IMG/VR virus record: IMGVR_UViG_3300010412_000005
Span: 1 to 64,000 of that record
Reading direction: 5' to 3' (one strand)
Origin: a virus
DNA: 64,000 nt
The notes under the pieces were generated by a model. It did no database searches. It was not told where the DNA came from and saw nothing but the letters and a program-made list of their open reading frames with translations. Shown piece by piece: positions 27,001 through 61,979 of the stretch (position 1 is the stretch's first letter; every line of letters begins with the position of its first letter). Position numbers and translations under genes: made by a program.

Positions 27001-30000
27001 TCGAAAAGCGGGTTGCCGGTTTGAGGAGCCAGCTCGCAGAAGCCGCCGCTGTTGCGCCTACGGCTGAGAATGCGCGGTCTATCCTGACCACCCTGGTGTC
27101 CAGGACCCAAAACAAGTTACGGCTCGCCAGAATCAATTCTCAGCGTTTGCAGGAGCAGCACGATTCCCTGATCGCTCAGGCTCAGGCAGCACTTGATGCA
27201 GTCCCAGTCGGTCCAGCAAGCCCAACCACCCTGGCTAAGATCGCTGATCTCAGGGCAAGAGCTGAGACTCTTGGCAAAAAGAAGATGGCTCAGGTCAAGA
27301 CCGTTGAGAGCCTTCAGGCAGAGATCAAGGAATACCAGCGCCAGATCGAGGACATCAAGAGGATGCCCAAGGATGCGCCCATTGATCGCGAAGCTATCAG
27401 ATCTCAGATCAAAGACCTTGAGGCTCGACGTCAACGTGTATCAGAAAAAATTCCAGGCAGGGCTGAGGCGATGGATACCCTGCGTAAAAGGTTGGTAGAC
27501 TTGGAGTTGCAGTATCGCAAGGCGTTCTTGGAAGAGGTAGATGAGCGATCTGGTGGCAAAGTCTCCGAGTTCATGCAGAAGCGAGAGGCTGCTGGTGCTG
27601 AATACAGAGGAACATCATGGGCCATTGCAAACATCAGGGCCGCATTGGCGACATACGGATACCAGTTCGATGTCCAGCCATACGTGAGGAAGTTCGTAGA
27701 AAGGGAAGTCACTGATCCTGTCACTGGTCAAAAGGCAGTCATTAAGGAATACACCAGACGTATCGGTGGGACAGTAGGGGCGGTAATTGCTCAGAGACTA
27801 AGGGCTGGCGATGTTGAGGTTGCGGAACAGTTTGAGGCTAATGACTTTCTGACTATCAGACCAGTTCCAAACTTCTTCGTAAGAGAAGGTGAGGAGATCA
27901 ACTGGCCAGAAGCCGCCAAGTCTTTCCTGACGCTGATCGAGAAACCAACAGAAGCCCAGAAGAAATCTGCTGAAGGCGTTACGAGTTCAGACTCATTCGT
28001 TGCGTGGTTTAAGGAGAACATCGTTCCAGCCGTCATGGGGATTCAGGAGCGTTTGTCGAAGGCTGAAGCTGCTTTGACTGAACTGCAAAACAGCGTGTCT
28101 GACTTCGGGCTGACCAAGCAGTCGACGTGGTCCTATGATGCGAAGTCGAACGAATTCAAGTGGGGCATTGACTCGTTCCTGGCACCAGATCCGAACTACG
28201 TGGTCTGGATGTCTGAGATCAACTCACGAAGCCCTCTCGGTTCTGACCCTTCCAGCACCGTTGTAATCCCTCCTGGAGCAGGGCAGAGCTTGCCGCTTGA
28301 GCCAGACTTCGAAGGTGAACAGGTCAAGATTCCGCATGTTCACCCTGGAGATCGCCCTCAAACCAAAGAGGGTATGTTCAACCCTGGCAAAGGAGACGTC
28401 ACGTGGCAGATCGCATACTACACCCAGGATGATGATGGCAGGATGGGTGACACGATTGTGGTCTTGCAGCGCAGCCATCATAGGGTGTTTCACATCGTCA
28501 CGATTAAGGATGGTGTTGTCGTTGAAGATGTTAGGGCTCCTCAAGACAAGACAACTGGACGGACAAACTACAAGACAGCTGTCCAGGCTGCTCAGTCAAA
28601 ACTCAAGGGTAAGATTCAGTCTGCGTTCTGGACAGCTGAGCGAGGTTTCCAGATCCCAACTGTCTACAGCCTGTCTCCTCTCACTGATGGAACAGTTCCT
28701 TCAAACGTGAGTGGGCAGGGAAGCGTTCTTTGGACTCCTGCCGTAGAGCTGGACAGTATCGAGGATGCTCTCTATCGAGCTGCTGCAGCTGGTGAACTCC
28801 GACCAGGGATGAGCAAGGATGCCATCTCTAAGGCAGTAACCAAGGCTGTTGCTGGCATAAGCCCTTGGCACTATAGCGCTTACAAAAAGAGCTTCCAGGC
28901 TCAGCGCTATTGGAGATCTCAAGCCGAGAACATCATTCGCAACGCTACACAAGACGCGATCATGGCGACACAGATCGCCAGTTCTGGTCGAAAGCCAAAC
29001 ACTGAAGTTCTCGCACGGGCATTTGGAATCGCAAACCCAACATTCACGCCGAAGAAGATGCCTAAGCTTGAACTGGCTCAAGCTGAATACATCAGAAGGG
29101 CTCTGAGTGTTCCACGTGGAACAACGGACTTCCAGGAGACAGTCGAAGTTGAATCGACGTTTGAAGTCAAATACCCGCGCACGACGCAAACCAGAGAGAA
29201 CGGTTCTCGCGTTGTGTCAATCGAGCTGGATCATCCGACAGCACCAGCCGTTTTGGGGACTCCGTATTTCAGAAGGACTACGCCGCTGGTAGCCAAGCAG
29301 GAAGACTCAATCATCATTACCAAAGATGGCAGAGCATACGGATGGTTCGTGTTTACTGAAGCCACCACAGCTGCTGAGAAGAACAACATCTTCGCAACAA
29401 TCGACGGAAATCCATCTGCCACTGCATACACTGAGACAGTCACTAAGCGTGCACCGCGCATGAAAATGGACCCCGCTGACAGGGTGGAGCACGCTGAGGA
29501 TTATCTGCAATCTCGTGTTGTTCAACGACTTGAGCAGCCAACGAACAATCCTACCACCCAGCAGCTTGCAGCTGAAGCCGCAGCTACGGTCGACAAGCTT
29601 AGAGAAACGAAGACTGGCAGAGATATTCTGCAGAACTTCCTTGAGGATGCGCGTGATGTCCGACTTGGCAGAAGCCGGTTCGTCAACAACATGCTGCGGC
29701 TCTTCAACACTGCTTCATTCAGTGAGCAATACGCCGTTCAGGTTGATGACAGCACAGTCGAGCGATACGTGGATGTCTCCATTCCAAACGTGATGGAGAA
29801 GACCAGGGTTCTGGTCGAAGCAAACACCACCAACGAAGAGGCGTATGCTGCTGCTGTTTCCCAGTTGGTAGACCAGATGTCGATGGCTGTGTCTCCACAG
29901 ATGCTCAGGATATTCGGAGTCAGTGGAGCTACCTACAGCGAGATGTCCTACGAGCCAAACCTGGACGGCTACGTCAGGCTCAAGAAGGGCATGGAGGCTC

Positions 30001-33000
30001 CTGAGAACCGCGTTCGAATCAAGGAGCTGAACGACATTGCTGACCTGGGCAAGAACCACCCAAGCTACAAGCTGGTCAAGGGCAGGTTCACGATGGGTGT
30101 TGGGTATGAGCGCATGGCTGAATTGCTTGCGGAGGTTGGGCTTAACCCAAGCCTGCTGACAAAGCCGAAGCCGGGTCAGAACGTGCAGCTTGAGTTCGTT
30201 GGGGACGATGGCGTGACCAAGATCATGCACACCATCGCGACTCCGAAGACCAATGAGCGTGTGCTGCGTAGGAAGACGAAGGCTGGCAAGGTTGTCGAGA
30301 CGAAGATTCCGTTCGAGTCTGTGGTGGTTGGAAAAATGTTCGACTACTACGTCGAACGCATCCAGCAGATCTACAAGCGCATCCAGGATCATCAGGTAGC
30401 CAGGGCAAACATGAAGGCTCTGGTTGCAAGAAGGCTGTTCGCTGAGGCTTTCAGGCTTCCAATCATCGAAGGTCCGTTTAAGGGTGTTCTCCTTCAGGCC
30501 AAGAACCAGCAGAGGAATCCAAGACATCAGATGCTTGGGCGAGCCAAGGCTGTCATCGGGGCAGAGCAGGCTGCTGCTGGAAAGAAAGCTGAGGAGGAAT
30601 ACCTGCCTGAAATTGATACGAGCGGCTTCTACGAGTATCGACTCGTCAGCAATAAGATCTGGACGAAGGCCAAGTTCGAGACCGACGAAAACGTCAAGTT
30701 CCAGGCGTCATTCATTCCGCTCGGAACTGTTTTGCTTCAGGTTGAAAGCGAAGGCGAGTTCCACAATCGTCAGACAGTCAGCACCAACGCAATGGAGGCT
30801 GAGGAGGTTGAGCTTGAGCGAAAGAAAGGCGAGACTGACGAGGAATATGAAGAGCGAGTTGAGATGGCAAAGCTCAAGTCTCGCTTTGATGTTAAGGCTG
30901 TAGAAGCTTTCTTGGCTGTAGAGAAACAGCCTAAGACAGGACGACACTTTGCACGCATAGTCATTCGCGGTGGAACTAAAGCAAAGCCTGAATGGGAAAC
31001 TATCTACCGCGTAGACCTTCAGAAGCTTCAGAATAGCGGACTTGCAAAACCATTTACCAAAGAAGAAACCAAGAGTGGGAAGACTGATGGCTGGTATATC
31101 AACAGGCATGCAGTCAACAACTCTGCATGGTGGGAAGTCGCTAAGCCTGATAGGCGTGACTATCTGAGTCCTGAAGACTTTGCAAACTACTATCCACACA
31201 AGCTCGGGCTTCTTCCTGGAGATGTGCTTGCACAGGCTCGGTGGGTTTCGATGGTGTCTGAAGGAAGTGATGCAGAGAGAATCATCAATGAGCGCGTCAG
31301 TGGATTGAGCAGCACATCGGTAGGGACGTTCAATCAGAAGATCACTGAAGCTGCACCAGATACATTCTCTGCTACCCGTTTCAACATGGAAGATGTTGAG
31401 GGTGGAAACTTGATGGATTGGCTTGAGGAGAATCTAAGCAAGTCAGCCAAAGGTATAGAGATCCTCAAGCGTATTCACTCCATTGACCCTCTTGCTGAGT
31501 TGACACCTGAAGGTAGAGATCCTTGGCAAATCGTCAGGGATGAGATCCTTGTCATAAACGGAATTCCTATTGGCAAGGATGCTACTAAGACTCAGGAACA
31601 GCTTGCTCTTGCTGACAAGATTGAGAAATCTCTGAATCGGGTTCATGAGTCTCGCGTGTCTGGTGGTGTTCAATTCCGTGGCGGTGGTCGCAGGACACGC
31701 ATAAGCGATGTCAATCCAGACGTCATCAACAAGCCTGCTATAGGCAAGGCTGCAATTCGCGAGCTGATCAACACTGAGAACAACGGATTAAGCCCAAGAG
31801 CGAAGCGGCTTGCCAACCTGATGCTCGATGTGCTTCCTGATACGATCCTTGAAGATCTTACGTTTGTGATCACTCCTGGATACGAGATCGGCAACGACGC
31901 GACAGTCGAATACACCGGGTCATTTAGCCATGCTTGGAGAATCGCAAGGTTCGTCAGCACATCTGGAAGTGTTCACACAGCTGCTGAGGAACTCGCGCAT
32001 GCTGCTGCCATGTTCCTTCCTGCTGAGCACAAGGGAGCCGTTGAGGAATATCGGCAAATTGAGATACGTCAGGCTCTTGAGAACCCAACCACTCCTGAGA
32101 TCGTAAAGACTTTCCTGAAGGACATGGAGGCTAACGGTGGTGCGTTCACCAGTGAAGACTTCATGCACCGCAGGGGTAATCAATACCTGCTGCCTTACTA
32201 CCACCTGATCAACACAGATGAGTTCTTTGCCCATAACATGGTTGCTGCCACTGATCGTAAAGGCAGGACAAACCTGCAGAAGGCAGTTGATAAAGCAAAG
32301 AGCATCATCTCTGGGTTCCTGAAGGGAATCAAAAAGGCGATGCGCATGATGAACGCGCAGCGCGATTCTTACTTCGACGAACTGATCGCCAAGTTCGAAG
32401 CCGGTGACTTTGAGGTTACAGCCAACGGTGGGTTCTTGCATGAGATCAATAAGGACGTAGACATGGGCGCTGTTGCCGTCGCGTGGACTGCTGGTCAGGT
32501 CAAGCGCCAAGCAGAGACTATCCCAGTTTCTACTGCGGGTGGTCCTGCTTTGGCGTTTACCAAGGCGCAGCGAGGGACTGTAATCGCGGCTGGAAATGTA
32601 GAACCATATACCATCCTTTCCGCCCTTACTGCCAAAAGAGAGGCACAAGGAAGAAAGCTCAGCGCAAAGGCAAAGCAGATCTGTCTGATCGACAACTTCC
32701 AAGAAGTGATCGAAACCGTCCGTAATGTGTTCAAGGTTCCGATTGGACAGTTCAAAGACACGATCACCAATCTTCCAGCTGTATGGCTGAAGGAACAAAC
32801 AATCTTAGCTGCAAGCTCGTCCGTGAACTTCATACGCGAGCGAATGAACAAGGTTAAGAAAGCCAGGGATACATGGATGGCTAAGCTAACGTCTCCTAAG
32901 TTCATTCAGGACATGAGGAAGTTTGCTAAGCTGAAGATCGAGGTTCTTGGCCAAGAGGCAATCGCTGCAAGACTCGAAGAGCGCATTAAATCTCATCTTG

Positions 33001-36000
33001 CTTTGCTGCGTGCGCGTCTTGCAGATCCGAATCTTGATCCCAACAGCCCATTGGCAGCCAATGCAGCTCGCGAAATAGATCTTTATGAATCATATATGAC
33101 CTACTCTATGGGCATCGCCCAGAAGGTAGAGCAGATGATCACAGCATTGTCGCTGACTGAGCAGGGCAACGAGCTGCTGCAGAATCCTTGGGGAAATCTT
33201 GATCCTCGCGCAGTAACGAAAGCATATAAAGACACTGCTCCTCCTCCAGAACAGCTTCAGGTTGGCAATGCAATCATAGAGGCAGCTGCATACTTCATAG
33301 CAACTGAACCAGCTATAAGGCAGTTGATGGCAGCTGCTGTGTATCAGGCTGACCCTGAAGTAGCAAACTTGACTGATCAGTTGACGATGGACATGACCAA
33401 CATGATGGACGAGTTGGTCAAAGCTCCAGCTGGGTTACGTGCAGTCGGCAAGGGCGACGACTTGGTTAACAAGTTCATGCGTCTGATCAGAGCCACGCAG
33501 AAGTCGACTGCTGCCGAGACGAAGGCAAAGACTGTTATGCGAGCGCAGCAGATTAAGCTTCGTAAAGTGATCAACAGGGCTCAGATGCTTGATGAAGCAT
33601 ACGAGTTCTACCAGGAGCTGATGGCAGATCCTGATTGGATCGCATACGAAGGTGAGATTGCCGATCTTGCTGGTGCTCTTCACATTCCAGAGAACTGGAA
33701 ACATGTCGGTAGCGATCCTGTGTCAGGCATTGTGAAGATGCCGCTTCCGATGACTGCTCCGAAGGTAACGACCAGTGGAACTGAGAACGCATACCATGTT
33801 GTAAAACTGCACGACAACTTGGCCAGATGGGAGGCTGAGCGCGTAAAGGTTCAGGAGTCCATTGATCAGATGACTCAGTGGCTAGTAAACAATGGCAACG
33901 ATGAAACTCTTGATGCCAAGTATTTCAAGTCGATGATTAAGTATGGGCAGATGCTGCTCGACTCATCCTTGGTAAACGACATACAAGGCAATCACCAGGG
34001 TGGGTTCAACTTCATCAACGCGATCTTCAATAAGTGGACCGCAATGTGGGAAGGTATTGCTCGTTCGGCTCCAGTGCGTGCAATTCAGAATTCGCGTATT
34101 GCTGTCAGAGCGTGGAGCGATTCGATGTTGCTCATGAACAAGTGGTATCAGAAGTGGGGTGATCGGATTGCAACACTTCTGCATAAAGCCACAGACTCTC
34201 ACAGCGACATCGTTGATATCAGTGACAGAAACAAGTCTGTCTACGACTGGTTCAATGAGGTAGGCAGAGAATTGTTCCACCTTGCCAACGAGGGATACGA
34301 TCCGAAAGCAGGAGATACTCTTCCTGATGCTCAAATAGAGATCACGCAGGACGATATCAACTGCCTAAAGGAAATGGTTACTGCAGCAGACGAGGCATAC
34401 GAGATTGATGTCACGCGAGGGCGAGAAGTAATTCCTTCAAGGACCGTAACTGACGAGTTCATTCCTGGAATGCCGTATCAACGTCGTGCTATGAAGCTTG
34501 TTCAATACATGCTTCCACGCACGTTCAACAAAGCTGCAATGGACTTTACTAAGAAGTGGCTCATTGAGCATGCTGGTTACGACGCTGATCGTAATAACTA
34601 CAGTTTCAGGGATATGGCTGGAGCTACTGAGCTTCTCGATCAGCACTGGTATCTGTTGAAGGCGTTCCTCAGCGACAGAGACCTTGGTTTCACTGACAAG
34701 AAGAGCCCACTGGAAGTAGGTGCATACCCGGCATTGCTTGAAAAGATCAGAAATGAAGAGATAACCAACGTAGAAGACTTCCTGGCTGCGCTCGATACGT
34801 TCAGCATCACTGAAGAAAACTTCGATGCACGACAGCAGTTCTGGAAGGACTTCTTCCATCTGCAGAAGGGAATCTACAATAAGGCTGTTACTGACAAATC
34901 GTCAGAGACGGATTCACAGCGTAAAGGGGTTTACATTCCATTCGAGCAGGAGAACTCATTCACGCGTGGTCGCGGTCAAAGGATCGCGCCGTATGCATGG
35001 TATAATCACGGATTCCACAGCACGGCACAGACAATGTCGTTCATGCTGAATGGATCTTCCCACTATCTGAACTGGGTAAGCAGATCAGTAGAGGACTCTA
35101 TCCTTGTATTGAAGGACATGCAGGACGATTACCAGAAACGCATTGATGCGTTGGAAGGAAAGAGAGAGCCGAGTAAGGAGACAAGGAAGCGTAGGCTGAT
35201 TGAGGAAACCAAAGCGAATCGTCAGGCGATGCGCCTGAACGAGGAGCGAATTAAGCTTGAGGATATCGACAGCACTATCAAAGCGCTAAGAGACTTCAGA
35301 ACTGAACTTCAGAAGGTATTCGCCTCTGAAGGTAAGCTGCTTGAAGAAGAGACGCTGCAGTGGAACAGGTTCTTTGGCCTGTATATGGGTGGTGCTATCT
35401 CAAGCTTCCGCACTGGCATTCAGAACATGCTGCAGTCAGCAATCGGTTACTCGTCTTGGAGGTTGCAGCGTCTGCGTGGTGGAATCTTCAGTGTGTGGCC
35501 ACAGCATGCGTTTAGGCTGACCTGGGATCTTGCACAGATGGCACCATACTCAGCTATCCGTGCAATCTACGATGCTGCTCCATTCATTGGGAAGGTGCAT
35601 TACATCAAAGCTCTCAAGGAAATGGGCATGCTGTTCAGCGTGTCGAACTATCAGAAGTATGGTCTGGCTAACATCCCTCGTCAGGTAACGCTCACGTTGA
35701 ATGAGTTGTTCTCTGACATGGTTCAAGACCTTGCTGATGGAGCGTGGAAGCGAGGAAGGATTTACAGAGAACTCGCAGAGCGCGGACTTAACAACCCGTT
35801 CAACACGCGCTACCACCTTGAGTCGGTTGCGGAGTCGTTCACAAGCCTTGGAAGGATTACATACAAGGAGACTGACAAGCCTGTTGCTGCAGAAGGTCCT
35901 GTTGATTGGGTGTGGAAACAGATGTGGAACGTGCTCAAGACTACCGGCAAGGGTATGCTTGGAGCTGTTGATATCGGCATGGCGCTTACGATAAGGCCAT

Positions 36001-37541
36001 TCCTTCCTCGCGCTGGTGACATGATGGCTAATCAGGTTGCAGCTGAGACAGTGTTCTCAGCTATGCACGCAGTAGAAAGCAGCCTTCGGCACAACTACCT
36101 GAGAGCTAAGGATCGTGGTGCTGATCCTCGCATCGTTGGAACAATTCTTCCAACTGATGTGCTGCCGCGTTGGTTCAGGCTTCCGCGCAACAATCTGTCG
36201 GCGCTGTCTGATCTGAAGAACTGGTTCCAAGGTGCTGCCGTTGATCTCAAGGGCGCAATCAATGACTTCTATGATCGCCTTGATGCTGCCGGTGATGATC
36301 CGAAAGCTCTTGGTGAGGTTCGGTTCCTTGATCATGAGCAGATCTGGAATCTTGCTCAGCAGCATCTTGAGGATGTTAACGTGGCAACGCCCGCCAACCG
36401 TCCAGCCATCGCAAAACGGAACACGATCAACCGTATTCTGTTCGCACTCAAAGGATGGAGATGGAACATGTTCAGCAAGATCATGGACATGATGGGTGGT
36501 GCCATGATGAAGCATGAGAGCGTGGCGCTAAGAGCATGGGAGAAGTTTGGAAATATGTATTACATCCTATCCGCAGCAGCCATCGGTGGTCTCGCTGGGT
36601 ATTGGTTGTTGGAGACGCTGACAAGGGCGATCTACCTTGCGCTATTCGGAGAGATCCGAAGCGTCAGAAAGCTTGAGGATGTGTCTGCTAAGCCAACCGA
36701 AGTTGCTGTCGGAATGGCATCCATCGTTCCGTTCCTCGATACCGCTGTGAACCTCACGTTCAACACGCAGCCTTCCAAGGCAAGATTCAGTCCTGGAAGT
36801 CTGGTCGACAGCATGATGCTTCAGGTCATGAACTACGTTGCTGGTGCATACAACAGCAAGGATCTGACTTACGGTGTCGACCGCGCTGTCGTGACGTTAC
36901 AGCCGACAATCGGCAAGCTTGTGATGAACAGGATGCCGGGTGCTACCGGCAAGATCGAGAACTGGAATGCCAGCAGGCTCCTGATCAGGCATGGCGAAGA
37001 TTCGTGGCTCAGGGAGTCAAGGTTCGGTGGTCAGATGTCTGGAATGTTCGTGACTCCATACACGCCAATCGCTGACCGCATGGTGAACGCAGCCATGCAG
37101 AACGATATCGGAAGGGTCCAGGAAGAATACATGGACGGCGTGACTCAGATGGTGATGAACGAGAACATCCCATACGAGGAAGCCCAGCGTCGTATGCGTC
37201 AGATGTTCACCAGTCGCAATCCATACGACCGCGCATACAAGCGCAGGCTGACATCTATGGAAAGGGCTCAGGTCCTCAACAAGATGGACATGGACGACAG
37301 GGACAGAGTCCAAGCTGTTGAGCGCAAGTTTGAAGCAGCAGCCAACGCCATCGGCGCGAACGTGAACTTCGAAAAGCAGGAGCGTCTGTTCAAGGCTGGA
37401 AAGACAGCAGTATCGCGGTTGCAGGCCATTCGAAAGCAGAGACGTGCAATGCTCATGAGCAACTCTGCAGCTCGCAGGGCGAGCATAAACATCATGGATC
37501 GCAGTCGTGGACTGTTGACTCGTGGACGAGTCTTACTATGA
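24057..37541 (+). CDS. giant internal virion / polyvalent-type protein (4,494 aa)
   Basis: YDPF N-terminus, Gly-rich hydrophobic helices, EGLEE motif, coiled coil, degenerate zincin motif EELAH...DEFFA, helical C-terminal region. Confidence 0.8.
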   Translation: MPESYDPFSDLQDPNVAVSEPPLPPAPGRPAAPQEQQFDRKQFVVDVLEDIERSPEYQAYKRNRKEAALKEELRQQRQRTADFGESVLGNLLHLKSGDLQLAKIGAIFSGWANRKLGMPEAAAVADRKADEYRQEQKEIRSAIDGLNMGAVARTAGQFGESFIVSSPTLVVPGTAATAAARAGLGVAGASMVGLGAGAGVGGGISGISVYDDARDQYIAQGFSEEEASEMAKYPGWVSGIGTAAITALFGRTGVERSAFLKLPKDKVIGVLRQVFNQAGLEGLEEGADEIYQKITGYLTYHPDMPVEQAISEVGAAFGLGMAMGGGVEILGQIVNMSPPEIKALNEREFPRPQERPKTRKEAEGSPILPASTPKQGQTKPTVKSVQSNEEAARQLWGAMKPEERLKVIGPQGAAAPLPLEAINWEDLTEEEQLKVYDQFNLSVEPVGGRIPATAPAMPTAEDLAENERLTKAMRMSLIGSPEHEAAWAAKEQLKAKYGGHDLTKIGTEVPVAEAAAPAEPTAPGDQAWATRLSPSDSLAVRSAEPIDPTTITSVTKDTNDAGQTVYAIIYDNGKYIGYDDNPAWELHPLFGKKITPAAPAAPAEPGALANHADQVTVPQGIPASENTAYRSLETNPQITVEEFAGMDNEQRANHARSIGLNATGLSYAVGHNATVTENDILLLKTAYDQARARGQQLADESSKRTLTDAELNELSQLGQVENAMAEAIGAATDTGSAGFTLRKLPNYRPNFRGLINEPKRQSNQPEVKAAKNRAVTEVTAQTSDIPTTLATNLPDDQEQLAREQVFKGLKPAEFSPAQAKIYKGRDRANYDKRVLELRALAFIAPTLARGETLVFPDTATLGKIKKNHPGIYRLLQDEISRLTTPPRADTPSQEAAASTPTQDLPKNEDQSNPLSLKEMSKSAVEHFISTLNLLKQAAESKVRSAKHVKKQKSVLAKQGKTLKEFKKVQALHAEALQEVSRIEKRVAGLRSQLAEAAAVAPTAENARSILTTLVSRTQNKLRLARINSQRLQEQHDSLIAQAQAALDAVPVGPASPTTLAKIADLRARAETLGKKKMAQVKTVESLQAEIKEYQRQIEDIKRMPKDAPIDREAIRSQIKDLEARRQRVSEKIPGRAEAMDTLRKRLVDLELQYRKAFLEEVDERSGGKVSEFMQKREAAGAEYRGTSWAIANIRAALATYGYQFDVQPYVRKFVEREVTDPVTGQKAVIKEYTRRIGGTVGAVIAQRLRAGDVEVAEQFEANDFLTIRPVPNFFVREGEEINWPEAAKSFLTLIEKPTEAQKKSAEGVTSSDSFVAWFKENIVPAVMGIQERLSKAEAALTELQNSVSDFGLTKQSTWSYDAKSNEFKWGIDSFLAPDPNYVVWMSEINSRSPLGSDPSSTVVIPPGAGQSLPLEPDFEGEQVKIPHVHPGDRPQTKEGMFNPGKGDVTWQIAYYTQDDDGRMGDTIVVLQRSHHRVFHIVTIKDGVVVEDVRAPQDKTTGRTNYKTAVQAAQSKLKGKIQSAFWTAERGFQIPTVYSLSPLTDGTVPSNVSGQGSVLWTPAVELDSIEDALYRAAAAGELRPGMSKDAISKAVTKAVAGISPWHYSAYKKSFQAQRYWRSQAENIIRNATQDAIMATQIASSGRKPNTEVLARAFGIANPTFTPKKMPKLELAQAEYIRRALSVPRGTTDFQETVEVESTFEVKYPRTTQTRENGSRVVSIELDHPTAPAVLGTPYFRRTTPLVAKQEDSIIITKDGRAYGWFVFTEATTAAEKNNIFATIDGNPSATAYTETVTKRAPRMKMDPADRVEHAEDYLQSRVVQRLEQPTNNPTTQQLAAEAAATVDKLRETKTGRDILQNFLEDARDVRLGRSRFVNNMLRLFNTASFSEQYAVQVDDSTVERYVDVSIPNVMEKTRVLVEANTTNEEAYAAAVSQLVDQMSMAVSPQMLRIFGVSGATYSEMSYEPNLDGYVRLKKGMEAPENRVRIKELNDIADLGKNHPSYKLVKGRFTMGVGYERMAELLAEVGLNPSLLTKPKPGQNVQLEFVGDDGVTKIMHTIATPKTNERVLRRKTKAGKVVETKIPFESVVVGKMFDYYVERIQQIYKRIQDHQVARANMKALVARRLFAEAFRLPIIEGPFKGVLLQAKNQQRNPRHQMLGRAKAVIGAEQAAAGKKAEEEYLPEIDTSGFYEYRLVSNKIWTKAKFETDENVKFQASFIPLGTVLLQVESEGEFHNRQTVSTNAMEAEEVELERKKGETDEEYEERVEMAKLKSRFDVKAVEAFLAVEKQPKTGRHFARIVIRGGTKAKPEWETIYRVDLQKLQNSGLAKPFTKEETKSGKTDGWYINRHAVNNSAWWEVAKPDRRDYLSPEDFANYYPHKLGLLPGDVLAQARWVSMVSEGSDAERIINERVSGLSSTSVGTFNQKITEAAPDTFSATRFNMEDVEGGNLMDWLEENLSKSAKGIEILKRIHSIDPLAELTPEGRDPWQIVRDEILVINGIPIGKDATKTQEQLALADKIEKSLNRVHESRVSGGVQFRGGGRRTRISDVNPDVINKPAIGKAAIRELINTENNGLSPRAKRLANLMLDVLPDTILEDLTFVITPGYEIGNDATVEYTGSFSHAWRIARFVSTSGSVHTAAEELAHAAAMFLPAEHKGAVEEYRQIEIRQALENPTTPEIVKTFLKDMEANGGAFTSEDFMHRRGNQYLLPYYHLINTDEFFAHNMVAATDRKGRTNLQKAVDKAKSIISGFLKGIKKAMRMMNAQRDSYFDELIAKFEAGDFEVTANGGFLHEINKDVDMGAVAVAWTAGQVKRQAETIPVSTAGGPALAFTKAQRGTVIAAGNVEPYTILSALTAKREAQGRKLSAKAKQICLIDNFQEVIETVRNVFKVPIGQFKDTITNLPAVWLKEQTILAASSSVNFIRERMNKVKKARDTWMAKLTSPKFIQDMRKFAKLKIEVLGQEAIAARLEERIKSHLALLRARLADPNLDPNSPLAANAAREIDLYESYMTYSMGIAQKVEQMITALSLTEQGNELLQNPWGNLDPRAVTKAYKDTAPPPEQLQVGNAIIEAAAYFIATEPAIRQLMAAAVYQADPEVANLTDQLTMDMTNMMDELVKAPAGLRAVGKGDDLVNKFMRLIRATQKSTAAETKAKTVMRAQQIKLRKVINRAQMLDEAYEFYQELMADPDWIAYEGEIADLAGALHIPENWKHVGSDPVSGIVKMPLPMTAPKVTTSGTENAYHVVKLHDNLARWEAERVKVQESIDQMTQWLVNNGNDETLDAKYFKSMIKYGQMLLDSSLVNDIQGNHQGGFNFINAIFNKWTAMWEGIARSAPVRAIQNSRIAVRAWSDSMLLMNKWYQKWGDRIATLLHKATDSHSDIVDISDRNKSVYDWFNEVGRELFHLANEGYDPKAGDTLPDAQIEITQDDINCLKEMVTAADEAYEIDVTRGREVIPSRTVTDEFIPGMPYQRRAMKLVQYMLPRTFNKAAMDFTKKWLIEHAGYDADRNNYSFRDMAGATELLDQHWYLLKAFLSDRDLGFTDKKSPLEVGAYPALLEKIRNEEITNVEDFLAALDTFSITEENFDARQQFWKDFFHLQKGIYNKAVTDKSSETDSQRKGVYIPFEQENSFTRGRGQRIAPYAWYNHGFHSTAQTMSFMLNGSSHYLNWVSRSVEDSILVLKDMQDDYQKRIDALEGKREPSKETRKRRLIEETKANRQAMRLNEERIKLEDIDSTIKALRDFRTELQKVFASEGKLLEEETLQWNRFFGLYMGGAISSFRTGIQNMLQSAIGYSSWRLQRLRGGIFSVWPQHAFRLTWDLAQMAPYSAIRAIYDAAPFIGKVHYIKALKEMGMLFSVSNYQKYGLANIPRQVTLTLNELFSDMVQDLADGAWKRGRIYRELAERGLNNPFNTRYHLESVAESFTSLGRITYKETDKPVAAEGPVDWVWKQMWNVLKTTGKGMLGAVDIGMALTIRPFLPRAGDMMANQVAAETVFSAMHAVESSLRHNYLRAKDRGADPRIVGTILPTDVLPRWFRLPRNNLSALSDLKNWFQGAAVDLKGAINDFYDRLDAAGDDPKALGEVRFLDHEQIWNLAQQHLEDVNVATPANRPAIAKRNTINRILFALKGWRWNMFSKIMDMMGGAMMKHESVALRAWEKFGNMYYILSAAAIGGLAGYWLLETLTRAIYLALFGEIRSVRKLEDVSAKPTEVAVGMASIVPFLDTAVNLTFNTQPSKARFSPGSLVDSMMLQVMNYVAGAYNSKDLTYGVDRAVVTLQPTIGKLVMNRMPGATGKIENWNASRLLIRHGEDSWLRESRFGGQMSGMFVTPYTPIADRMVNAAMQNDIGRVQEEYMDGVTQMVMNENIPYEEAQRRMRQMFTSRNPYDRAYKRRLTSMERAQVLNKMDMDDRDRVQAVERKFEAAANAIGANVNFEKQERLFKAGKTAVSRLQAIRKQRRAMLMSNSAARRASINIMDRSRGLLTRGRVLL

Positions 37542-50507: not shown

Positions 50508-50892
50508 GGATGACAGTCTCGGTCCAACTTCCTTTGATCCTTTGAGCCATAACCCAACGAAACGTCGGGTATGCCTTGGCAGCTGCCCTGAGTTTAACCT
50601 TTGCGTCGTCATAGATGTATTCACCTTTCACTTCCCAAAAGGTATTCACATCCCCAACGAAGAAGTCGCATTTATACCACGCCTTACCTTCACCAACTCT
50701 TAGGTTGATATCCTGACAGTGGATGTATTTGTAACCCCTTGCTTTGAGGATTTCATACCACTCCTGCTCAGCCTTTGTCATCTCGACAGGCTGATGCTCC
50801 ACACGCTTAACGTGTGGCTCTGGCGGTGGAAGCTGCCCAAGCTGGGCAAGGGCTTGCCGTTGATACTTCTCTGGTAGATCAGAGATCTTCAC
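50461..50892 (-). CDS. PD-(D/E)XK nuclease (DUF1064-like)
   Basis: YKCDF...WEVKG...DDAKVK. Confidence 0.75.
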   Translation of the reverse strand: MKISDLPEKYQRQALAQLGQLPPPEPHVKRVEHQPVEMTKAEQEWYEILKARGYKYIHCQDINLRVGEGKAWYKCDFFVGDVNTFWEVKGEYIYDDAKVKLRAAAKAYPTFRWVMAQRIKGSWTETVIHDPTTGVDASQTVSD

Positions 50893-52039
50893 GAATCGGC
50901 CTCACCCGCTTCTGAGGTTCTTTGACAACCAGATTCGGTTCGATCTGTTCACGCCATGCCTTGAGCGCAGCTGCTTTGTTGCACTCAGCCGCATCCATGA
51001 AACGTGACACCCATACCTCCCTAATCTTTCCTATTGGAACTGTCAGAAGCGATGCGAACTCCTTGCCATCGCTGAAGTATTCCTTCACCAACTTGAATAG
51101 ATCGTTCGGGTGGTTGACCGTGTGACCTGATGGATGGTCATAGATCTCATATTCCTTGATCTCTCCACGTGCAACGCGCTCCTTGAATAGGTCCCTCACC
51201 TTCGTGCAGACCTGCTCGATCTGCGTGAGCTTTGGATATAGCGCAAGAAGCTGCTCATTGCTGAGAGAGTTGCATAGTGAGAACTCATGCTGCAGCACAA
51301 GCCCAAACGATTGACGTTGTGGGCACACCGCTGACACAGGACAGTATGTGCAGTGATCTCCTGGTATGCGTGGCTGGTTTGCGTCGTCTGCTTTCCACAG
51401 CGCACGCAGCAGTTGATTGCGTATGGAAAGGCAGTCGTCGACAGTCATCCTGACTATGATGGCGCGTGAGCTAACAAGAGGTTGGAAGATCGCACCGTAA
51501 AGCTTTTCGAACTTCAATCCATTGAGCTTCTCATCGAACGCCATCAGCGTAAGGTATGTCTGCAGCTGCCAGTTCTTTGTGGCAACAGGAACAGGCTTTG
51601 GTCCGCGCTTGTAGTCTTCACAATACCACGTGCCTTGTCCGTCAGTTCCGAAGTAGTCTGGCTCACCAGACATCACGAACTGGTCCTTGTGCTTCATCCA
51701 TAGACGCATGCGCACCCAGTTCTTGTTGATCTTGTCAGGACCACCAAACAGATCCTGAACTGTCATGTCGTGCATCAGTGTGCACTTCTCCGCTACGAAC
51801 TCCTCGATCTCACCAAGCCCAATCTCAACAGGCTTGCCGTCGATCATGCATTCGATGGCATCGTGAGTCTCGGTGCCGCTTTTCGCGATGGGGCTTTCTT
51901 CTTCTTGCGAGTGCTCCCACGTTTTTTTGGCGTAGAGGTAGCCTGGGCAGGCGATGATTCGGTGGGCTTCGCTTGCGCTTGGGAGCCCTCTGCGCTCATC
52001 GGTCTGATCCTGTTCTGCGGTCTGATTGATTTGAGCCAT
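50879..52039 (-). CDS. Cas4/DUF2800-like PD-(D/E)XK exonuclease
   Basis: SAS...CPG, GT.TH, GEPD, DYKRG, WQL..Y, HCTYCP...CP. Confidence 0.82.
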   Translation of the reverse strand: MAQINQTAEQDQTDERRGLPSASEAHRIIACPGYLYAKKTWEHSQEEESPIAKSGTETHDAIECMIDGKPVEIGLGEIEEFVAEKCTLMHDMTVQDLFGGPDKINKNWVRMRLWMKHKDQFVMSGEPDYFGTDGQGTWYCEDYKRGPKPVPVATKNWQLQTYLTLMAFDEKLNGLKFEKLYGAIFQPLVSSRAIIVRMTVDDCLSIRNQLLRALWKADDANQPRIPGDHCTYCPVSAVCPQRQSFGLVLQHEFSLCNSLSNEQLLALYPKLTQIEQVCTKVRDLFKERVARGEIKEYEIYDHPSGHTVNHPNDLFKLVKEYFSDGKEFASLLTVPIGKIREVWVSRFMDAAECNKAAALKAWREQIEPNLVVKEPQKRVRPIREDL

Positions 52040-56563: not shown

Positions 56564-57487
56564 CTAATCGGATTCGATGTCGTCGTTGATGAACTGGCGA
56601 GACGGGCGAATGGTAATCATCTTGTCGATCTCACCCTTGAGATCAGAGAACTGAGATGCCATGCGCTCTCTCATTCCGTCATCACCACGCATCATTTCAC
56701 TGAACGCTTTGGGATCGTCCACGTCTGACATGACAGACTCAGCCTTCTTAACAAGCTCTGCCAAGTCTTTATCATTCATGATGTTCCTTGCATTGAACGT
56801 CTCAAGGAACTCTCTGATGTTTTCAATAGTCGAAGACTTGAAGGTCTTCGCTTTCTCGCCTGGAGCGACGGTCAGTCGCTCGACAGCATGGTCGATGAGT
56901 TTGGAGAATGACATGCGTAGTGTCACAAGGATCTTCTCCTGCGCATCCAACCATATCTGCTCACTCTTCTTCTTGGCTGCGAGGTAGAGTTCTTTCGGAA
57001 GATTCTCAGGCACGCCAAACGAGACGGGTAGCCATGTGAACCCGAACTTAACCTCCATGATGTTCGCCTCTGGATAATCACCAGGGCTGTAGTAAGGACC
57101 AAGCTCCTGTCTGTCCAAGTATTCGATGGACTTGATGTCAGCGCACAGGTCAGGAACCATCACAGACTTTAGCGTCTGCTGGTCCTGTGTGATGCGTGAG
57201 TTGATGGAGTCATACTCGTTGAGTTTGACCATGAAAATGCCAACCTTGAAGAAGGATGGCATTGACCTGCTTTGGACCCAGGCTTTCGTCTCGTTCTGGA
57301 ACTGAACGATGCGGTCGTATTGCTTCGATGTAGTCAACCGCACAGTCTTTCGCAGGCGTTTGGCATTGACCTTGTCACGGTCTGCCTCCTCCTGTGATAC
57401 CTTGACTGTCTTGCGGTTTGACCAGCGCTGCACACTGAAGTTCAGAGCGCAGCAATCCTTGAATAGTTCTACACTGAGTTGCTTCAT
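56564..57487 (-). CDS. DUF3150-like protein
   Basis: W...K, PSFF..G.F.V, Y...DYP, FKSSTIEN...F...F...NI.ND..L pattern. Confidence 0.6.
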   Translation of the reverse strand: MKQLSVELFKDCCALNFSVQRWSNRKTVKVSQEEADRDKVNAKRLRKTVRLTTSKQYDRIVQFQNETKAWVQSRSMPSFFKVGIFMVKLNEYDSINSRITQDQQTLKSVMVPDLCADIKSIEYLDRQELGPYYSPGDYPEANIMEVKFGFTWLPVSFGVPENLPKELYLAAKKKSEQIWLDAQEKILVTLRMSFSKLIDHAVERLTVAPGEKAKTFKSSTIENIREFLETFNARNIMNDKDLAELVKKAESVMSDVDDPKAFSEMMRGDDGMRERMASQFSDLKGEIDKMITIRPSRQFINDDIESD

Positions 57488-57747
57488 TCTTGCCTTGTTG
57501 ATTCGGCACGTTGCCGAGAGGTTATGTCTAAGACCCAGCCCATAGCCTTTATGACAGTCTCAAATGGAGCGTCACCAGGACCAGTAAGCCGCATCACTAC
57601 TCTATTCTTCTTATCGAACTGATACACTGTGTTTGATCGTGGAACACCGTAGACACCCATGTCTTTGAGAATACTGATCAACCCTTGCGTCCATGTGATC
57701 GCTCGATCCATTCCTTCTGGTGTGTTGATGTTCCATTCCTTCATCAT
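57484..57747 (-). CDS. hypothetical protein
   Basis: ATGA overlaps; W....I..LK..GV..VPRS...Y..DK. Confidence 0.65.
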   Translation of the reverse strand: MMKEWNINTPEGMDRAITWTQGLISILKDMGVYGVPRSNTVYQFDKKNRVVMRLTGPGDAPFETVIKAMGWVLDITSRQRAESTRQE

Positions 57748-58136
57748 ATAGTTCCTTCCTCTCCGAATGTTGGGCATGGATCTGCATCAGCCCGATGCCA
57801 TAGATGCAGACAGTTCTTGGCGATGTTCACATGCACCCGTGCCTTTGGCCAGATGCTGATCGCCATACGTTCGTCTCCAATGAAGACGCGTTTGATCTCC
57901 TTCATCTCTTGATAGGATGGGAGTCTGTCCTTGTGGCTCACCGATACGTGAATCCATTCCTGGCCATCGCAATACTCAATGAACTCCTCGTTGTCAGGGA
58001 TGGTGATGATAACTCGGAGCGGCAGTGTCTTGTGTTCAAAGACCTTGCCTCGTGGACCCCAGTCTCCGAGTTGTTTCCAATACTGCCGCATCTCTGGTGG
58101 TTGCGGCAGGAAACTCTCGACGCTCGTGTATATCAT
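57744..58136 (-). CDS. conserved phage hypothetical protein
   Basis: WIHVSVS...RLPSY.EM..IK..F...HVN...CLHLW pattern common in phages. Confidence 0.75.
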   Translation of the reverse strand: MIYTSVESFLPQPPEMRQYWKQLGDWGPRGKVFEHKTLPLRVIITIPDNEEFIEYCDGQEWIHVSVSHKDRLPSYQEMKEIKRVFIGDERMAISIWPKARVHVNIAKNCLHLWHRADADPCPTFGEEGTI

Positions 58137-58339
58137 GCGCGGAGTTTCTGCTTCTGCTTCTGGCTGCGGTTGCCTTGCTTCTGCCTGCGAACAGGACCAC
58201 CCATTCCTTTGCTGATCTCAGCAAGCAACTGCTCAGCCGTTGCGTGGTTTGCACCGCTGATCTTGTCAGTGGTAAACTTCATGCTGCCATCTGCCAGCAT
58301 TTCGAACTCGATCTCGTCGTATTGTCCTTCGTCTTGCAT
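58133..58339 (-). CDS. DUF2997-like small protein
   Basis: IEFEMLADGSMKF...ISG...H..AEQL and Q-x-Q tail; follows AAA and DUF1257-like genes. Confidence 0.6.
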   Translation of the reverse strand: MQDEGQYDEIEFEMLADGSMKFTTDKISGANHATAEQLLAEISKGMGGPVRRQKQGNRSQKQKQKLRA

Positions 58340-58347
58340 GTTATTCC

Positions 58348-58779
58348 TTAGTGTTTACCCCAGCAGAACCCAGTGAAACCGCCTTTGTCTTCCTGCTTTC
58401 CAAACTGCGAACCGAAGCCAGTGCCGATTCGCTTACGCAGTTTGCCTTTGCCAGTCTTCTGGTCATAAGAGAACTCCCAACCAGGAAGACTGGTGACCCT
58501 CTTCTTCATCATCTCCCAGATGTAGCTACGCTTGATCTCTCTCATCATAGCTTCATCACCCTGGTCTCGATACCACCGAAGGGAGTTAGGAACTCTCCTC
58601 CTGTCATACGTTATCACGCCAGTCCTCTGGTTGTAATTAACTCCATCGCCATAGACTGACTTGTTGACGTGATCGACAGACACGCTTCGCCAGCCATCTT
58701 TCTCAAGAGATCTGGCAAGTATGTCTAGGTCGAGTGCTAACATGTTCAGCTCATTGAGCTGCACCGTATCACATGGCAT
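58348..58779 (-). CDS. DUF1257/Ycf35-like protein
   Basis: DLDILARSLEKDGW...IKRSY...GW pattern and position after Ycf46-like ATPase. Confidence 0.55.
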   Translation of the reverse strand: MPCDTVQLNELNMLALDLDILARSLEKDGWRSVSVDHVNKSVYGDGVNYNQRTGVITYDRRRVPNSLRWYRDQGDEAMMREIKRSYIWEMMKKRVTSLPGWEFSYDQKTGKGKLRKRIGTGFGSQFGKQEDKGGFTGFCWGKH

Positions 58780-58784
58780 AACTG

Positions 58785-60437
58785 TTACTCCTTGCTGGAT
58801 GGTTTAGTGAAACCGAATAGAGTTCCAGCCGCCTCCATCACGGTTTGTTTAGCCTGAGAACTACTGTTCCCAGGATATTGGTAAGGACCCTCGTATGATG
58901 CGCTGATGTAGTTGCCGTGCGCAGACTTGCGAAGTGATTCTATCCTGTCACGCGCAGAGATGGCAACAGGCACAACAAACGAACTCGCTTGCTTGAGCGA
59001 GCACCCTAGATTGTAAGCATTGAAGCAGCACTGCTTTATTTCAGCACCAGTCCAGCGCTCGTCAATGAACCCAAGCTCCTGCTCAGGGATCTCGTATTGC
59101 TTGCGGTAGATGTCCCAGATCATCTGCCGCTCATCATCATCAGGAAGGTCGAAGAAGAATGTGCCGAGACCGAAGCGGCGTCTCAACTCAGGAGGAAGAG
59201 CAGTAATCGAGTTACAGGTTGCAATGAAGATGATGTTTGATCTCGCCATAGAAAGGATGACTTGCAATCCGTAACGCAAGCGTGCCTCAGACTCGCCAAC
59301 GTAGCTCGCTTTCATGCCTGCGAAGTCAAGCTGTGCTGTCAGGATGCCAGCCTCGTTGCCGGTAGCCTTGGCCATCGCTGACTTGGCTGCACCTGGAGGA
59401 CCAATAAAGATCATGCCGGTCACGTCGTTGTCCTGCATCCAACTGAGCAGATACCCAGTCAGTGATGTCGTGACACCGCTCATGTCTGTGCCGGTGCCAG
59501 CAAAGTGTTTCTCGATCTCGTCGATAAAGACCACAAGCCTTGGCCTACGCTTACCATTGATCAGCAGCTTCATGAATGTCTTGATGTTGCTGCAACCTCC
59601 GATGGTAGAGAATGTCTCTGCACCTGCGAACACAGACAGGCCAGGGGTTCGGTTCAGCTCCATGATCTTCTGGCTACGCAGCAATCCCATCTCAACCTTT
59701 CCCTTGCGTATGCTGAGACTGAACACCTGCTCGACACCGAACGCATTCAAGCCAGTAAGCGTGTCGACAATGGAGTCAACGTCCTCCAACTTAGGAGTAT
59801 TGTCTGCGCCTGCATGAGCGTCTTGCCACGTGGATTCCGCAATCTCGGCAATCTCATCGTCGGTAGGTAGCGTCTGCCTCAGCGTGAGAACATCGCTCTT
59901 GAGTTCTCTTGGTAACTGGAATGAATTGCCCATCATGATGAGCATGCACGAGCGAGCCTTGAACAGATCTCTCAGGTTCCAGATTGCTTGTTTGATACCC
60001 TCATTCTCCATGAACCAATGAGCGTTATACATCACGAACGTGGTGTTCTTTGGAGCAACAGTAAGGAAGTCCAGGCATGCACCAGGAGCTTGAGTTGCTG
60101 ACTTGACGTTGTTGTCGAACGCAAGAACCTCACCTTTATTGTTCATGTCAGGTGGTTGGATCTCCTGCCCAGTATAGGCGACAAGCATCTGACACAGCAG
60201 CTGCCTGCCAGTGCTGCCCTTGATGCTAAGACATGACAGACCGTTGCACAGGTCCCACTTGAACAGAACAGGAGCATCGCTGATTGTCTCATACAATCTG
60301 GCGATGTTCATCAGACTGTCGCGTGGATCTGGAGTCTCAAGTGCCACAATAGGAACACCGCAGTTGCGTGCATACCTAAGTGTGATCATCCACTGGGACT
60401 GTTTCTTTTTACTTTCCTTCGGTTTCGCTTTGACCAT
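58785..60437 (-). CDS. Ycf46-like AAA+ ATPase with rearranged ATPase domain
   Basis: inactive-type N-domain (WD...G, LPREL, LTGL), IGG, FIDEIEK, WMQD, GPPGAAKS, YVGESE, ATCN, LPPEL, FFFDLP, WTGAEI. Confidence 0.88.
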   Translation of the reverse strand: MVKAKPKESKKKQSQWMITLRYARNCGVPIVALETPDPRDSLMNIARLYETISDAPVLFKWDLCNGLSCLSIKGSTGRQLLCQMLVAYTGQEIQPPDMNNKGEVLAFDNNVKSATQAPGACLDFLTVAPKNTTFVMYNAHWFMENEGIKQAIWNLRDLFKARSCMLIMMGNSFQLPRELKSDVLTLRQTLPTDDEIAEIAESTWQDAHAGADNTPKLEDVDSIVDTLTGLNAFGVEQVFSLSIRKGKVEMGLLRSQKIMELNRTPGLSVFAGAETFSTIGGCSNIKTFMKLLINGKRRPRLVVFIDEIEKHFAGTGTDMSGVTTSLTGYLLSWMQDNDVTGMIFIGPPGAAKSAMAKATGNEAGILTAQLDFAGMKASYVGESEARLRYGLQVILSMARSNIIFIATCNSITALPPELRRRFGLGTFFFDLPDDDERQMIWDIYRKQYEIPEQELGFIDERWTGAEIKQCCFNAYNLGCSLKQASSFVVPVAISARDRIESLRKSAHGNYISASYEGPYQYPGNSSSQAKQTVMEAAGTLFGFTKPSSKE

Positions 60438-60660: not shown

Positions 60661-61170
60661 TTAATCCAGTTGCCAATCCGCCTTGGCTTGCGTTTCGTTA
60701 GGGTAAAAGACTTCGGCAATGATGTTGCCGGGTATGTCTTTGATACCAATGATCAGTCCGCTGATGCCAAACTTGCCAATGAATCTGGCAAATCCACTGC
60801 CGTATAGTGTGGCATAGCGGTCCTGTGTTTTGAGATGAACACCGATAGTTGCTTCATCTCCCCAGTCATCTTGTGTCTCAGGCACACGCTGGCCTGGATC
60901 TTCAAGATAAATGCTTTTCCATTGCTCGAAGCCGATAACTGTCAGCCCATCGGGTGCTGACAACACGTTTCTTGCTTCGTATGAGTATCCGATGCTGTTG
61001 AAGTAGCTGTTCATCAGCCGTGCACACTCCTCTGCCTTCTCTCGTGACATGATACATGGAGATGGCATTCCACTATTACCGTCGACACAAGCGAACGGTC
61101 GAACCTTACCGGGTGGATCTCCAACCTGATGGAGATACCACTTGTCGTTGGCTTTAATTGGATTGCTCAT
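60661..61170 (-). CDS. hypothetical protein
   Basis: ATGA overlap; ends WQLD. Confidence 0.6.
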   Translation of the reverse strand: MSNPIKANDKWYLHQVGDPPGKVRPFACVDGNSGMPSPCIMSREKAEECARLMNSYFNSIGYSYEARNVLSAPDGLTVIGFEQWKSIYLEDPGQRVPETQDDWGDEATIGVHLKTQDRYATLYGSGFARFIGKFGISGLIIGIKDIPGNIIAEVFYPNETQAKADWQLD

Positions 61171-61979
61171 GTGTATTTCACATTGATTGCACTGTTGAGA
61201 CACTTACGACAGAACTTCTCACCAAGAGGTTCCTTGATGAGATCAGCCATTGTGTATTCGTCGTCTAGCGGAGTGCTTCGCCATGTCTTGAGATACTCAA
61301 TCAGATATGAAGGCATGTGCAGCAAGCCTATAACCCTGAACTGCAGCAGCCATAGCATGATAAGCTCCCATCCCCAGAAGCAGTATTCACGGAAGTCGTT
61401 GTGCTTCCTGTAGAATCTGCCATCTGTGATAACGTCATCGCTTGCAAGCGATTGGTATGTATCCATCCAGCAGTAGTCTGCTTTCTGTCCTTTGATGACT
61501 TTGCGTGCGTCACCAACGTGGATGTGAATCTTCTTCATCTCTGGTCGACGTTCGTGCATGCGTGCGAACAACCTGATCACATCCGTGTTGATCTCAGCAA
61601 CGTGAACCTCCTTGACGTCTTTCTTGCGTGCGCAGCGCAATGGGAAGTAGCCAAGGCCAAGGCCAGCAGTCCATACGACACCGTTGGCTCGCTTAATTGA
61701 CAACTCGGATGCCTGCACTTCCATAGCGGTAAGAGACATCCATAGTTGCCCGTCTACTTTGAGCTGTGGAATCGCACCTGGAACGGATGCTCTGAAGTTC
61801 TTGTTGAAGTAATCATCGCATCGCATCGGTGGTTTTGTAGCCAGCGTGATCGTTGCTGTGCCTTCCGTCATCTCACGTTTCACATCCAAGAAGTCGAGTG
61901 CCTTCTTCCAGAATGCATCCGTGAATGGATTGCCTACCGGCGTGTTTCTTCTGGTGCCCATTGCAGATACCTTTCGCAT
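61167..61979 (-). CDS. spermidine-synthase-like class I SAM methyltransferase
   Basis: WMS.T.ME, VWTAGLGLGY, EINTDVI, GDA. Confidence 0.75.
   Translation of the reverse strand: MRKVSAMGTRRNTPVGNPFTDAFWKKALDFLDVKREMTEGTATITLATKPPMRCDDYFNKNFRASVPGAIPQLKVDGQLWMSLTAMEVQASELSIKRANGVVWTAGLGLGYFPLRCARKKDVKEVHVAEINTDVIRLFARMHERRPEMKKIHIHVGDARKVIKGQKADYCWMDTYQSLASDDVITDGRFYRKHNDFREYCFWGWELIMLWLLQFRVIGLLHMPSYLIEYLKTWRSTPLDDEYTMADLIKEPLGEKFCRKCLNSAINVKYT

Follow-up and report, generated by a model that had tools for sequence, protein, structure and literature searches.

The order Walker A, Walker B, sensor 1 is taken as a constant of the fold in AAA+ motors, which are among the best-studied protein machines, and the question raised by one gene in IMG/VR virus record IMGVR_UViG_3300010412_000005 is whether this order can be broken in nature with the fold and the ATPase site kept. 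The DNA analysed (64,000 nucleotides, positions 1 to 64,000 of the record, here called the window) comes from a complete phage genome record of 76,545 bp with direct terminal repeats, and the gene lies in its minus-strand early/replication region at positions 58785 to 60437. A first reading made from the letters alone (the sequence-only reading) had proposed that the Walker B segment of this gene stands before its Walker A. We show that a unit of about 40 residues, beta3 (carrying Walker B) with alpha3, has moved from the gap between alpha2 and the sensor-1 strand to the gap between alpha0 and the Walker A strand. We consider it quite probable that the gene is a Ycf46-like AAA+ member of a large lineage of single origin, with its Walker B unit moved and a normal three-dimensional site, and that its product would be an ATP-driven remodeller. 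The lineage is carried mainly by phages and prophage-like regions; “Ycf46-like” is used here as a label, the libraries searched containing no Ycf46 model. The gene and its parts, with the blocks lettered in their canonical order, are as follows (AF2, AlphaFold2; ORF, open reading frame; aa, amino acids).

58785..60437, minus strand: whole gene, a 550-aa two-domain Ycf46-like AAA+ protein with permuted AAA core (P0001); intact ORF
59652..60437, minus strand: N-terminal domain (residues 1-262), AAA-like alpha/beta, without Walker A; from structure match and alignment with normal-order relatives
59559..59603, minus strand: residues 279-293, helix alpha-0 region with IGG..IK, ahead of the core as is normal; AF2 helix 283-293
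59424..59543, minus strand: residues 299-338, the relocated block B, with Walker B (VVFIDEIEK) on strand s1 and then helix aX ending LLSWMQD; AF2 strand 301-305, helix 322-336
59241..59423, minus strand: residues 339-399, block A, with Walker A (GPPGAAKS) on strand s2, then a1, s3, pore loop YVG 379-381 and a2; AF2, PF00004
58878..59240, minus strand: residues 400-520, block C, not displaced, with the sensor-1 strand, LPPELRRRF, s5 (FFFDLP) and helical lid with WTGAEIK; AF2, BLAST

Translation of the frame places IGG/IK at residues 279-286, followed by PRLVVFIDEIEK at residues 299-310 (nucleotides ~59543-59508), which holds the Walker B residues D306/E307, and by LLSWMQD at 330-336. Only then comes GMIFIGPPGAAKS (residues 341-353, from nucleotide 59417, with Walker A K352/S353), followed by the pore-loop motif YVGESE (379-384), IIFIATCN (402-409, sensor 1 being N409), LPPELRRRF (414-422, with the conserved Arg pair R420/R421 of block C) and FFFDLP (427-432). 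The motifs thus run Walker B (306/307), Walker A (352/353), sensor 1 (409), which is not the canonical linear order, and the Walker A Lys-Ser, Walker B Asp-Glu, sensor-1 Asn and Arg pair are all present. The sequence-only reading had described the order Walker B, Walker A, pore loop, sensor 1 in an intact frame with all motifs kept, and the residue positions in the 550-aa ORF bear this out, its coordinates (59537-59430 for the Walker B block and about 59415 for the start of Walker A) being right within a few bases. The Gly to Ala change that it saw in Walker A is also real (GPPGAAKS), position 6 of this motif being, among 377 aligned family members, Ala in 60% (227), Gly in 30% (114) and Ser in 6% (22). 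Along the chain the elements follow as alpha0, beta3/Walker B, alpha3, beta1/Walker A, alpha1, beta2, pore loop, alpha2, beta4/sensor 1, beta5 and lid, so that just two connections differ from the canonical ones, that from alpha3 to the P-loop strand and that from alpha2 to the sensor-1 strand. Before the core, G281 is near-invariant (296 of 297 aligned homologues) and the motifs WNLRD..FK, LP.EL and DV of the N-terminal domain are conserved across homologues.

The gene has an AAGGA-like ribosome-binding site upstream of its ATG at 60437, and its start overlaps the stop of an upstream 82-aa ORF by 29 nucleotides (60409-60437). The first 16 residues are Lys-rich and are missing in most homologues; as these begin near M17, the ATG at 60389 could be the true start.

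Searches with profiles of canonical AAA domains gave matches that were out of order, as would be looked for in an exchange of blocks. PF00004 matched the ATPase in three separate stretches (E 1.2e-13; 52 bits, the cutoff being 21.2), the same result being obtained in a whole-genome search, and its best stretch placed residues 342-392 on profile positions 1-51; PF07724 placed the earlier residues 296-313 on its Walker B region (profile 72-89), and phrog_8638 matched in four stretches (E 5.9e-37). A search of PDB sequences with the family profile gave the same picture with VAT (5vc7), profile positions 297-368 falling on chain residues 44-114 and the earlier profile positions 254-304 on the later chain residues 100-151. 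Blocks B (296-340), A (339-400) and C (400-520) were also used as separate BLAST queries against 29 normal-order relatives and, wherever A and B both matched, B fell between A and C and adjoined the latter, as in L039 with A at 275-334, B at 335-374 and C at 377-489. Block C matched 28 of the 29; block identity was 41-53% in the closest normal-order relatives and that of block A was 45-47% to the Planctomycetota relatives. This placement indicates a clean exchange, from A-B-C to B-A-C, with no residues lost, and the breakpoints lie in the loops immediately preceding three beta strands. A single gapped BLASTP high-scoring segment pair spans the swapped region, which means that coverage figures of 91% are no proof of colinearity, and so motif positions and block-wise BLAST were relied on instead. 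“Canonical” order calls for P0089, P0112, P0115, L134 and L137 were rejected as chance matches to a G..G..K[ST] pattern.

Profile matches, block-wise BLAST and alignment with a normal-order relative therefore agree on an internal exchange of adjacent blocks with both flanks in normal order. The further claim that this is not a circular permutation holds for the domain, the flanks of which are unchanged, with the refinement that the exchange is a circular permutation of the internal A+B segment.

The permuted order is not confined to the window. A word-indexed search gave 2,065 matches, the top 120 being 40-69% identical to the ATPase, and when 1.84 billion cluster representatives were searched exhaustively with a profile, 14,087 matched at E<=1e-3, the best 150 of these being full-length or nearly so, and 3,123 at E<=1e-30. 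The Walker B-first order was common to all homologues aligned, in successive sets of 11, 119, 297 and 377, with 39-46 residues from Walker B to Walker A; in normal-order relatives Walker A lies about 59 residues before Walker B. Among bacterial loci (counted on contigs, one genome per species) the 33 that were at least 36% identical were permuted, and came from Acidobacteriota, Nitrospirales, Planctomycetota, Chthonomonadales and others, and the 31 at 22-30% had normal order. All 80 best IMG/VR viral loci had the permuted order, as did gp103 of the cultured Tunturiibacter phage Tunturi_3. The rewired order that the sequence-only reading had called rare is therefore real, and its rarity is not, since thousands of related proteins were found and all 377 aligned share it. 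If the order came from misassembly, or from a single decayed or rearranged copy of a normal AAA gene with colinear closest homologues, it would have to have arisen falsely in every close homologue examined, from independent metagenomes, metagenome-assembled genomes (MAGs), IMG/VR contigs and a cultured phage, and the intact frame and near-invariant catalytic residues in a complete genome record with terminal repeats would have to be accounted for. We found nothing in favour of this explanation and give it practically no credence; the closest homologues all share the swap, and this conservation across the family excludes both misassembly and a lone decayed allele.

Six permuted homologues carry inteins of 157-401 aa, which have Cys as first residue and end in HN, and some of which hold LAGLIDADG or HNH homing endonuclease domains. 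Three are inserted at sensor 1 (AT|CN, before the residue aligned to C408, in P0124, P0224 and P0240) and three in the P-loop, after G349 (GPPG|C) in P0136 and P0251 and after K352 (GK|S) in P0186.

Normal-order proteins of the same two-domain kind, with an N-terminal AAA-like domain without P-loop and a C-terminal AAA module with DEIEK and W(M/L)Q, were available for comparison. The closest to the window ATPase are the Planctomycetota proteins L037, L039, L048 and L082, phrog_8638 is counted among them, and protein QIG76105 of Rhizobium phage RHph_I4 (“ATPase domain-containing protein”) has the N-terminal domain, with which that of the window ATPase aligns, and the motifs of the window ATPase in canonical order, so that PF00004 matches it in a single stretch (profile 1-129) rather than in three. 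The window ATPase aligns full-length with the RHph_I4 and Planctomycetota proteins. Normal-order Ycf46-like proteins have in common with it a length of about 500 aa, the IGG..LK helix, a SLVG.SE pore loop, a DEIEK..G.DSGV..L.W(M/L).D block, an ATxN sensor 1, LPPE..R..F..FF.DLP and a WTGAE lid, and both types occur with DUF1257, DUF2997 and DUF3150 neighbours. They differ in running Walker A, pore loop, Walker B, WMQ, sensor 1, where the window ATPase has block B before A, and overall identity is only 22-30%.

In a tree of 58 permuted and 29 normal-order proteins, the permuted blocks being re-ordered for alignment only, the two types were separated by a branch supported at 97-99% (Shimodaira-Hasegawa-like approximate likelihood ratio test 99, and 97 without the columns of residues 292-404). 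The permuted lineage apparently fits a single origin, judging from these sequences, and its order would be the derived state, other AAA+ proteins being known only with normal order. Duplication followed by loss is the standard model for permutations and, as B-A is a circular permutation of an internal A-B, duplication and then trimming could have produced it. Most economically, the A+B segment would have been duplicated in tandem to A-B-A-B, and the first A and last B would then have been lost, a path on which the fold is never broken.

Whether the fold survived the exchange was approached through structure prediction and covariation. The AlphaFold2 model of the ATPase, made with 119 homologues, had a predicted local distance difference test score (pLDDT) of 92.1 and a predicted template modelling score (pTM) of 0.86, and gave helix 283-293, strand 301-305, helix 322-336, strand 340-345, helix 352-363, strand 366-370, helix 382-398, strands 402-408 and 426-428, and lid helices. 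Over the core strands pLDDT was 96-98, the only drop, to about 71, being in loop 311-320, immediately past s1. The whole model matched the tandem-AAA p97/Cdc48 D1-D2 (Z 19.5, 400 residues aligned, root mean square deviation (rmsd) 4.3), from which the N-terminal domain is taken to be an AAA-like domain without P-loop. The C-terminal module superposed on FIGNL1 (Z 15.4, rmsd 2.7, 210 residues aligned), Vps4 (Z 15.7) and p97-D2 (rmsd 2.5-2.9), with about 210 of its ~255 residues lying on canonical AAA domains at 2.5-3.2 Å. The unaligned remainder roughly equals the relocated unit in size, and an aligner that keeps chain order would be expected to leave such a remainder.

Covariation was measured by mean-field direct coupling analysis (DCA) of 371 sequences (effective number, Meff, 264) with the gap state excluded and in the zero-sum gauge. 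Among the ten possible pairs of the five strands the top four were s1-s4 (0.869), s2-s4 (0.547), s1-s3 (0.472) and s2-s5 (0.349), the rest being at or below 0.315 (null percentiles 0.340 for the 90th, 0.426 for the 95th and 0.780 for the 99th), and the analysis of 297 sequences, made at two pseudocounts, gave an identical top four. A sheet s5-s2-s4-s1-s3 has just these four adjacencies, and it corresponds to the canonical 5-1-4-3-2 when the moved strand takes the beta-3 slot; for a given four of ten pairs, the chance of ranking top is 1 in 210. The strongest single coupling, L301-A398, joins the two ends of the old alpha2-to-beta3 joint, V303 couples with F404, I402 and L370, and helix aX couples with helix a2 and the pore-loop region (T323-K376, S325-A373/E384, W333-L395 and Y329-L387). 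Without gauge fixing and with the gap state included the analysis was dominated by indel artefacts (315-317 versus 451-456), and a spurious s3-s5 signal obtained in that way was absent under the settings given above.

Prediction and covariation together support an AAA core of unchanged three-dimensional arrangement, in which the moved strand would lie between the sensor-1 strand and beta2 in a 5-1-4-3-2 sheet; this sheet order, a point named as a check on the rewired topology, is suggested by the covariation. We also considered that the relocated strand-helix unit might pack elsewhere or be domain-swapped into the neighbouring subunit, giving a different fold or assembly. The model is of a monomer, with which insertion in trans is compatible, and covariation is blind to whether a contact is made in cis or in trans. 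However, s1-s4 and s1-s3 are in the top four, level with the canonical control pairs s2-s4 and s2-s5, and with the core strands so confidently predicted and ~210 of ~255 residues superposed only the beta-3 slot is left for the remaining strand, and we therefore regard such an arrangement as very improbable.

With the moved strand in the beta-3 slot, the Walker A Lys/Ser, the Walker B Asp/Glu, the sensor-1 Asn and the Arg pair can form a normal AAA site, and conservation, predicted fold and covariation suggest that the ATPase is functional and its site active. In the family alignment E307 was found in 377 of 377 sequences, D306 in 372 (the other five having Glu), K352 in 375 (the other two being gaps), S/T353 in 374, N409 in 372 (the exceptions being gaps and one Leu) and R421 in 372 (the exceptions being gaps).

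Several points weigh against the overall reading given at the outset. Walker A position 6 is Ala in the window ATPase and in about 60% of the family, the canonical residue being Gly, and this Ala could lower or abolish hydrolysis. Pore-loop position 379 is mostly Leu and not aromatic (L 234, I 20, F 15, Y 9; n=297), the window ATPase itself having Tyr (Y379). The covariation signal is modest, only s1-s4 exceeding the 99th null percentile; the tree has no root and was obtained by a fast search; no A-B-A-B or B-A-B intermediate was seen among ~460 sequences inspected; and the 143-aa and 68-aa genes downstream of the ATPase, described below, have no significant match to DUF1257 or DUF2997.

The first two of these points would suit a protein that keeps the fold and serves as a switch or scaffold binding nucleotide, not as a motor that hydrolyses it, whether through the Gly to Ala change in the P-loop or through the altered wiring. 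We think this unlikely. The Walker B Glu, sensor-1 Asn and Arg matter for hydrolysis rather than for binding and are near-invariant here, the canonical Gly is retained in ~30% of members, and the inteins target the P-loop and the sensor-1 site, a pattern typical of functionally constrained sites. Our preferred reading remains that of a hydrolysing ATPase, which might be slow or switch-like.

A351 (59385-59387), the Ala in question, covaries with C282 (59592-59594) of the GGC loop before alpha-0 (DCA 4.07, the fourth strongest coupling), perhaps because the adenine-side loop and the unusual P-loop compensate for each other.

The neighbourhood of the gene in the window is as follows (HMM, hidden Markov model).

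50879-52039: exonuclease-like gene
56564..57487, minus strand: 307-aa DUF3150-like gene (cluster-2 HMM E 1.5e-57)
57744..58136, minus strand: 130-aa DUF7694 gene, between the small genes and the DUF3150-like gene (PF24746 E 7.5e-23; phrog_7839 E 1.1e-15)
58133..58339, minus strand: 68-aa gene with the slot and size of a DUF2997 partner; candidate by position
58348..58779, minus strand: 143-aa gene, directly downstream of the ATPase, with the slot and size of a DUF1257 partner; candidate by position
61167-61979: methyltransferase-like gene

Downstream of the ATPase the order is thus 143-aa, 68-aa, DUF7694, 97-aa and 307-aa DUF3150-like gene. The last of these is the most constant neighbour of the permuted ATPase, being adjacent in 76 of the 80 viral loci, and by HMM the Ycf35-like DUF1257 was found in 43 and DUF2997 in 42 of the same 80, both being present in many genome loci as well. 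A member of the cluster of the window's DUF3150-like protein carries PF11348 (9.4e-08). Its AlphaFold2 model (pLDDT 83.4) has a small beta region and long helices and matches DUF3150 proteins in BFVD (template modelling (TM) score 0.73-0.78, E 2e-12), and a PDB-wide fold search with it gave only generic helical-bundle matches (Z<=8.2). The 143-aa gene had no Pfam (E<=10), PHROG or cluster-HMM match and an hhalign probability of 2-8% against DUF1257, with no more than an atlas lead (0.88) to a cluster in which 25% of members have DUF1257. The 68-aa gene likewise had no significant Pfam (E<=10), PHROG or cluster-HMM match and an hhalign probability of 2.6% against DUF2997, with no more than atlas leads to DUF2997 clusters (0.79 by features, TM 0.63 by structure); hhalign was run both with a single sequence and with four.

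At bacterial loci a radical-SAM (Fer4_12) gene and a single-stranded DNA-binding protein (SSB) gene are often present as well. The radical-SAM gene was present in 19 of 33 genome loci compared to only 2 of 80 viral loci, and in one bacterial copy, that of a Bryobacteraceae MAG (L003, 7507-11273), the permuted ATPase is followed by DUF1257, DUF2997, radical-SAM Fer4_12, DUF3150 and SSB. Elsewhere in the window, the late/structural region holds a giant ORF of 4,494 aa (24057-37541, plus strand) with no PHROG match at E<=1e-5, near which an ORF at 18903-21278 matches a virion structural protein (phrog_3287), and a gene at 8584-10104 (minus strand) matches terminase large subunit.

Literature searches found no functional study of this module. 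The ATPase would be a ring-forming, ATP-hydrolysing remodeller of a protein substrate with an inactive D1-like N-terminal domain, and may act early in infection together with the DUF3150-like protein and the two small downstream proteins. We lean towards regarding it as the first recognised natural non-circular permutation of an AAA+/ASCE core that stays catalytically active, one relocation having founded thousands of phage-borne motors. In classical AAA proteins alpha3 is the position of the inter-subunit signalling element. Here alpha3 is wired to the P-loop strand and the pore-loop helix alpha2 to the sensor-1 strand, and so, if this is true, the lineage is a natural experiment in the extent to which folding, and the coupling of hydrolysis to the pulling of substrate, depend on chain connectivity. 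The ASCE core would then tolerate rewiring of a central strand, and permuted and normal-order Ycf46-like proteins would make a matched natural pair for the study of folding pathways and allosteric coupling. There are practical consequences as well: domain models and annotation pipelines rely on the canonical order, Pfam matches the ATPase only in fragments, and thousands of phage and prophage proteins are currently under-annotated. The comparison also defines a very common phage module, consisting of the permuted AAA gene and a DUF3150-like gene, often with DUF1257 and DUF2997 genes.

A AAA+ protein with Walker B before Walker A was not found described in the literature, many subscription journals being outside the coverage. 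The best structural matches to the ATPase are the classical-clade AAA unfoldases p97/Cdc48/VAT, NVL/Rix7, Vps4, spastin and FIGNL1 (for the AAA module against Vps4, FIGNL1 and p97-D2, Z ~15, rmsd 2.5-3.2, 198-212 residues). It shares with them Walker A and B, sensor 1, the Arg pair and Ala at the sensor-2 position (GAE), and differs from them in an identity of only 14-22%, in an N-terminal domain without P-loop and in the chain order of the core. The closest precedent known to us for the rewiring lies in the circularly permuted GTPases (YlqF/RbgA, YjeQ/RsgA and YqeH), P-loop NTPases in which the motif order is rearranged with three-dimensional fold and activity kept. These proteins, of the TRAFAC GTPase class, have a true circular permutation of the whole G domain (G4-G5-G1-G2-G3), whereas the ATPase of the window, of the ASCE/AAA+ class, has an internal exchange that leaves the termini of its domain unchanged.

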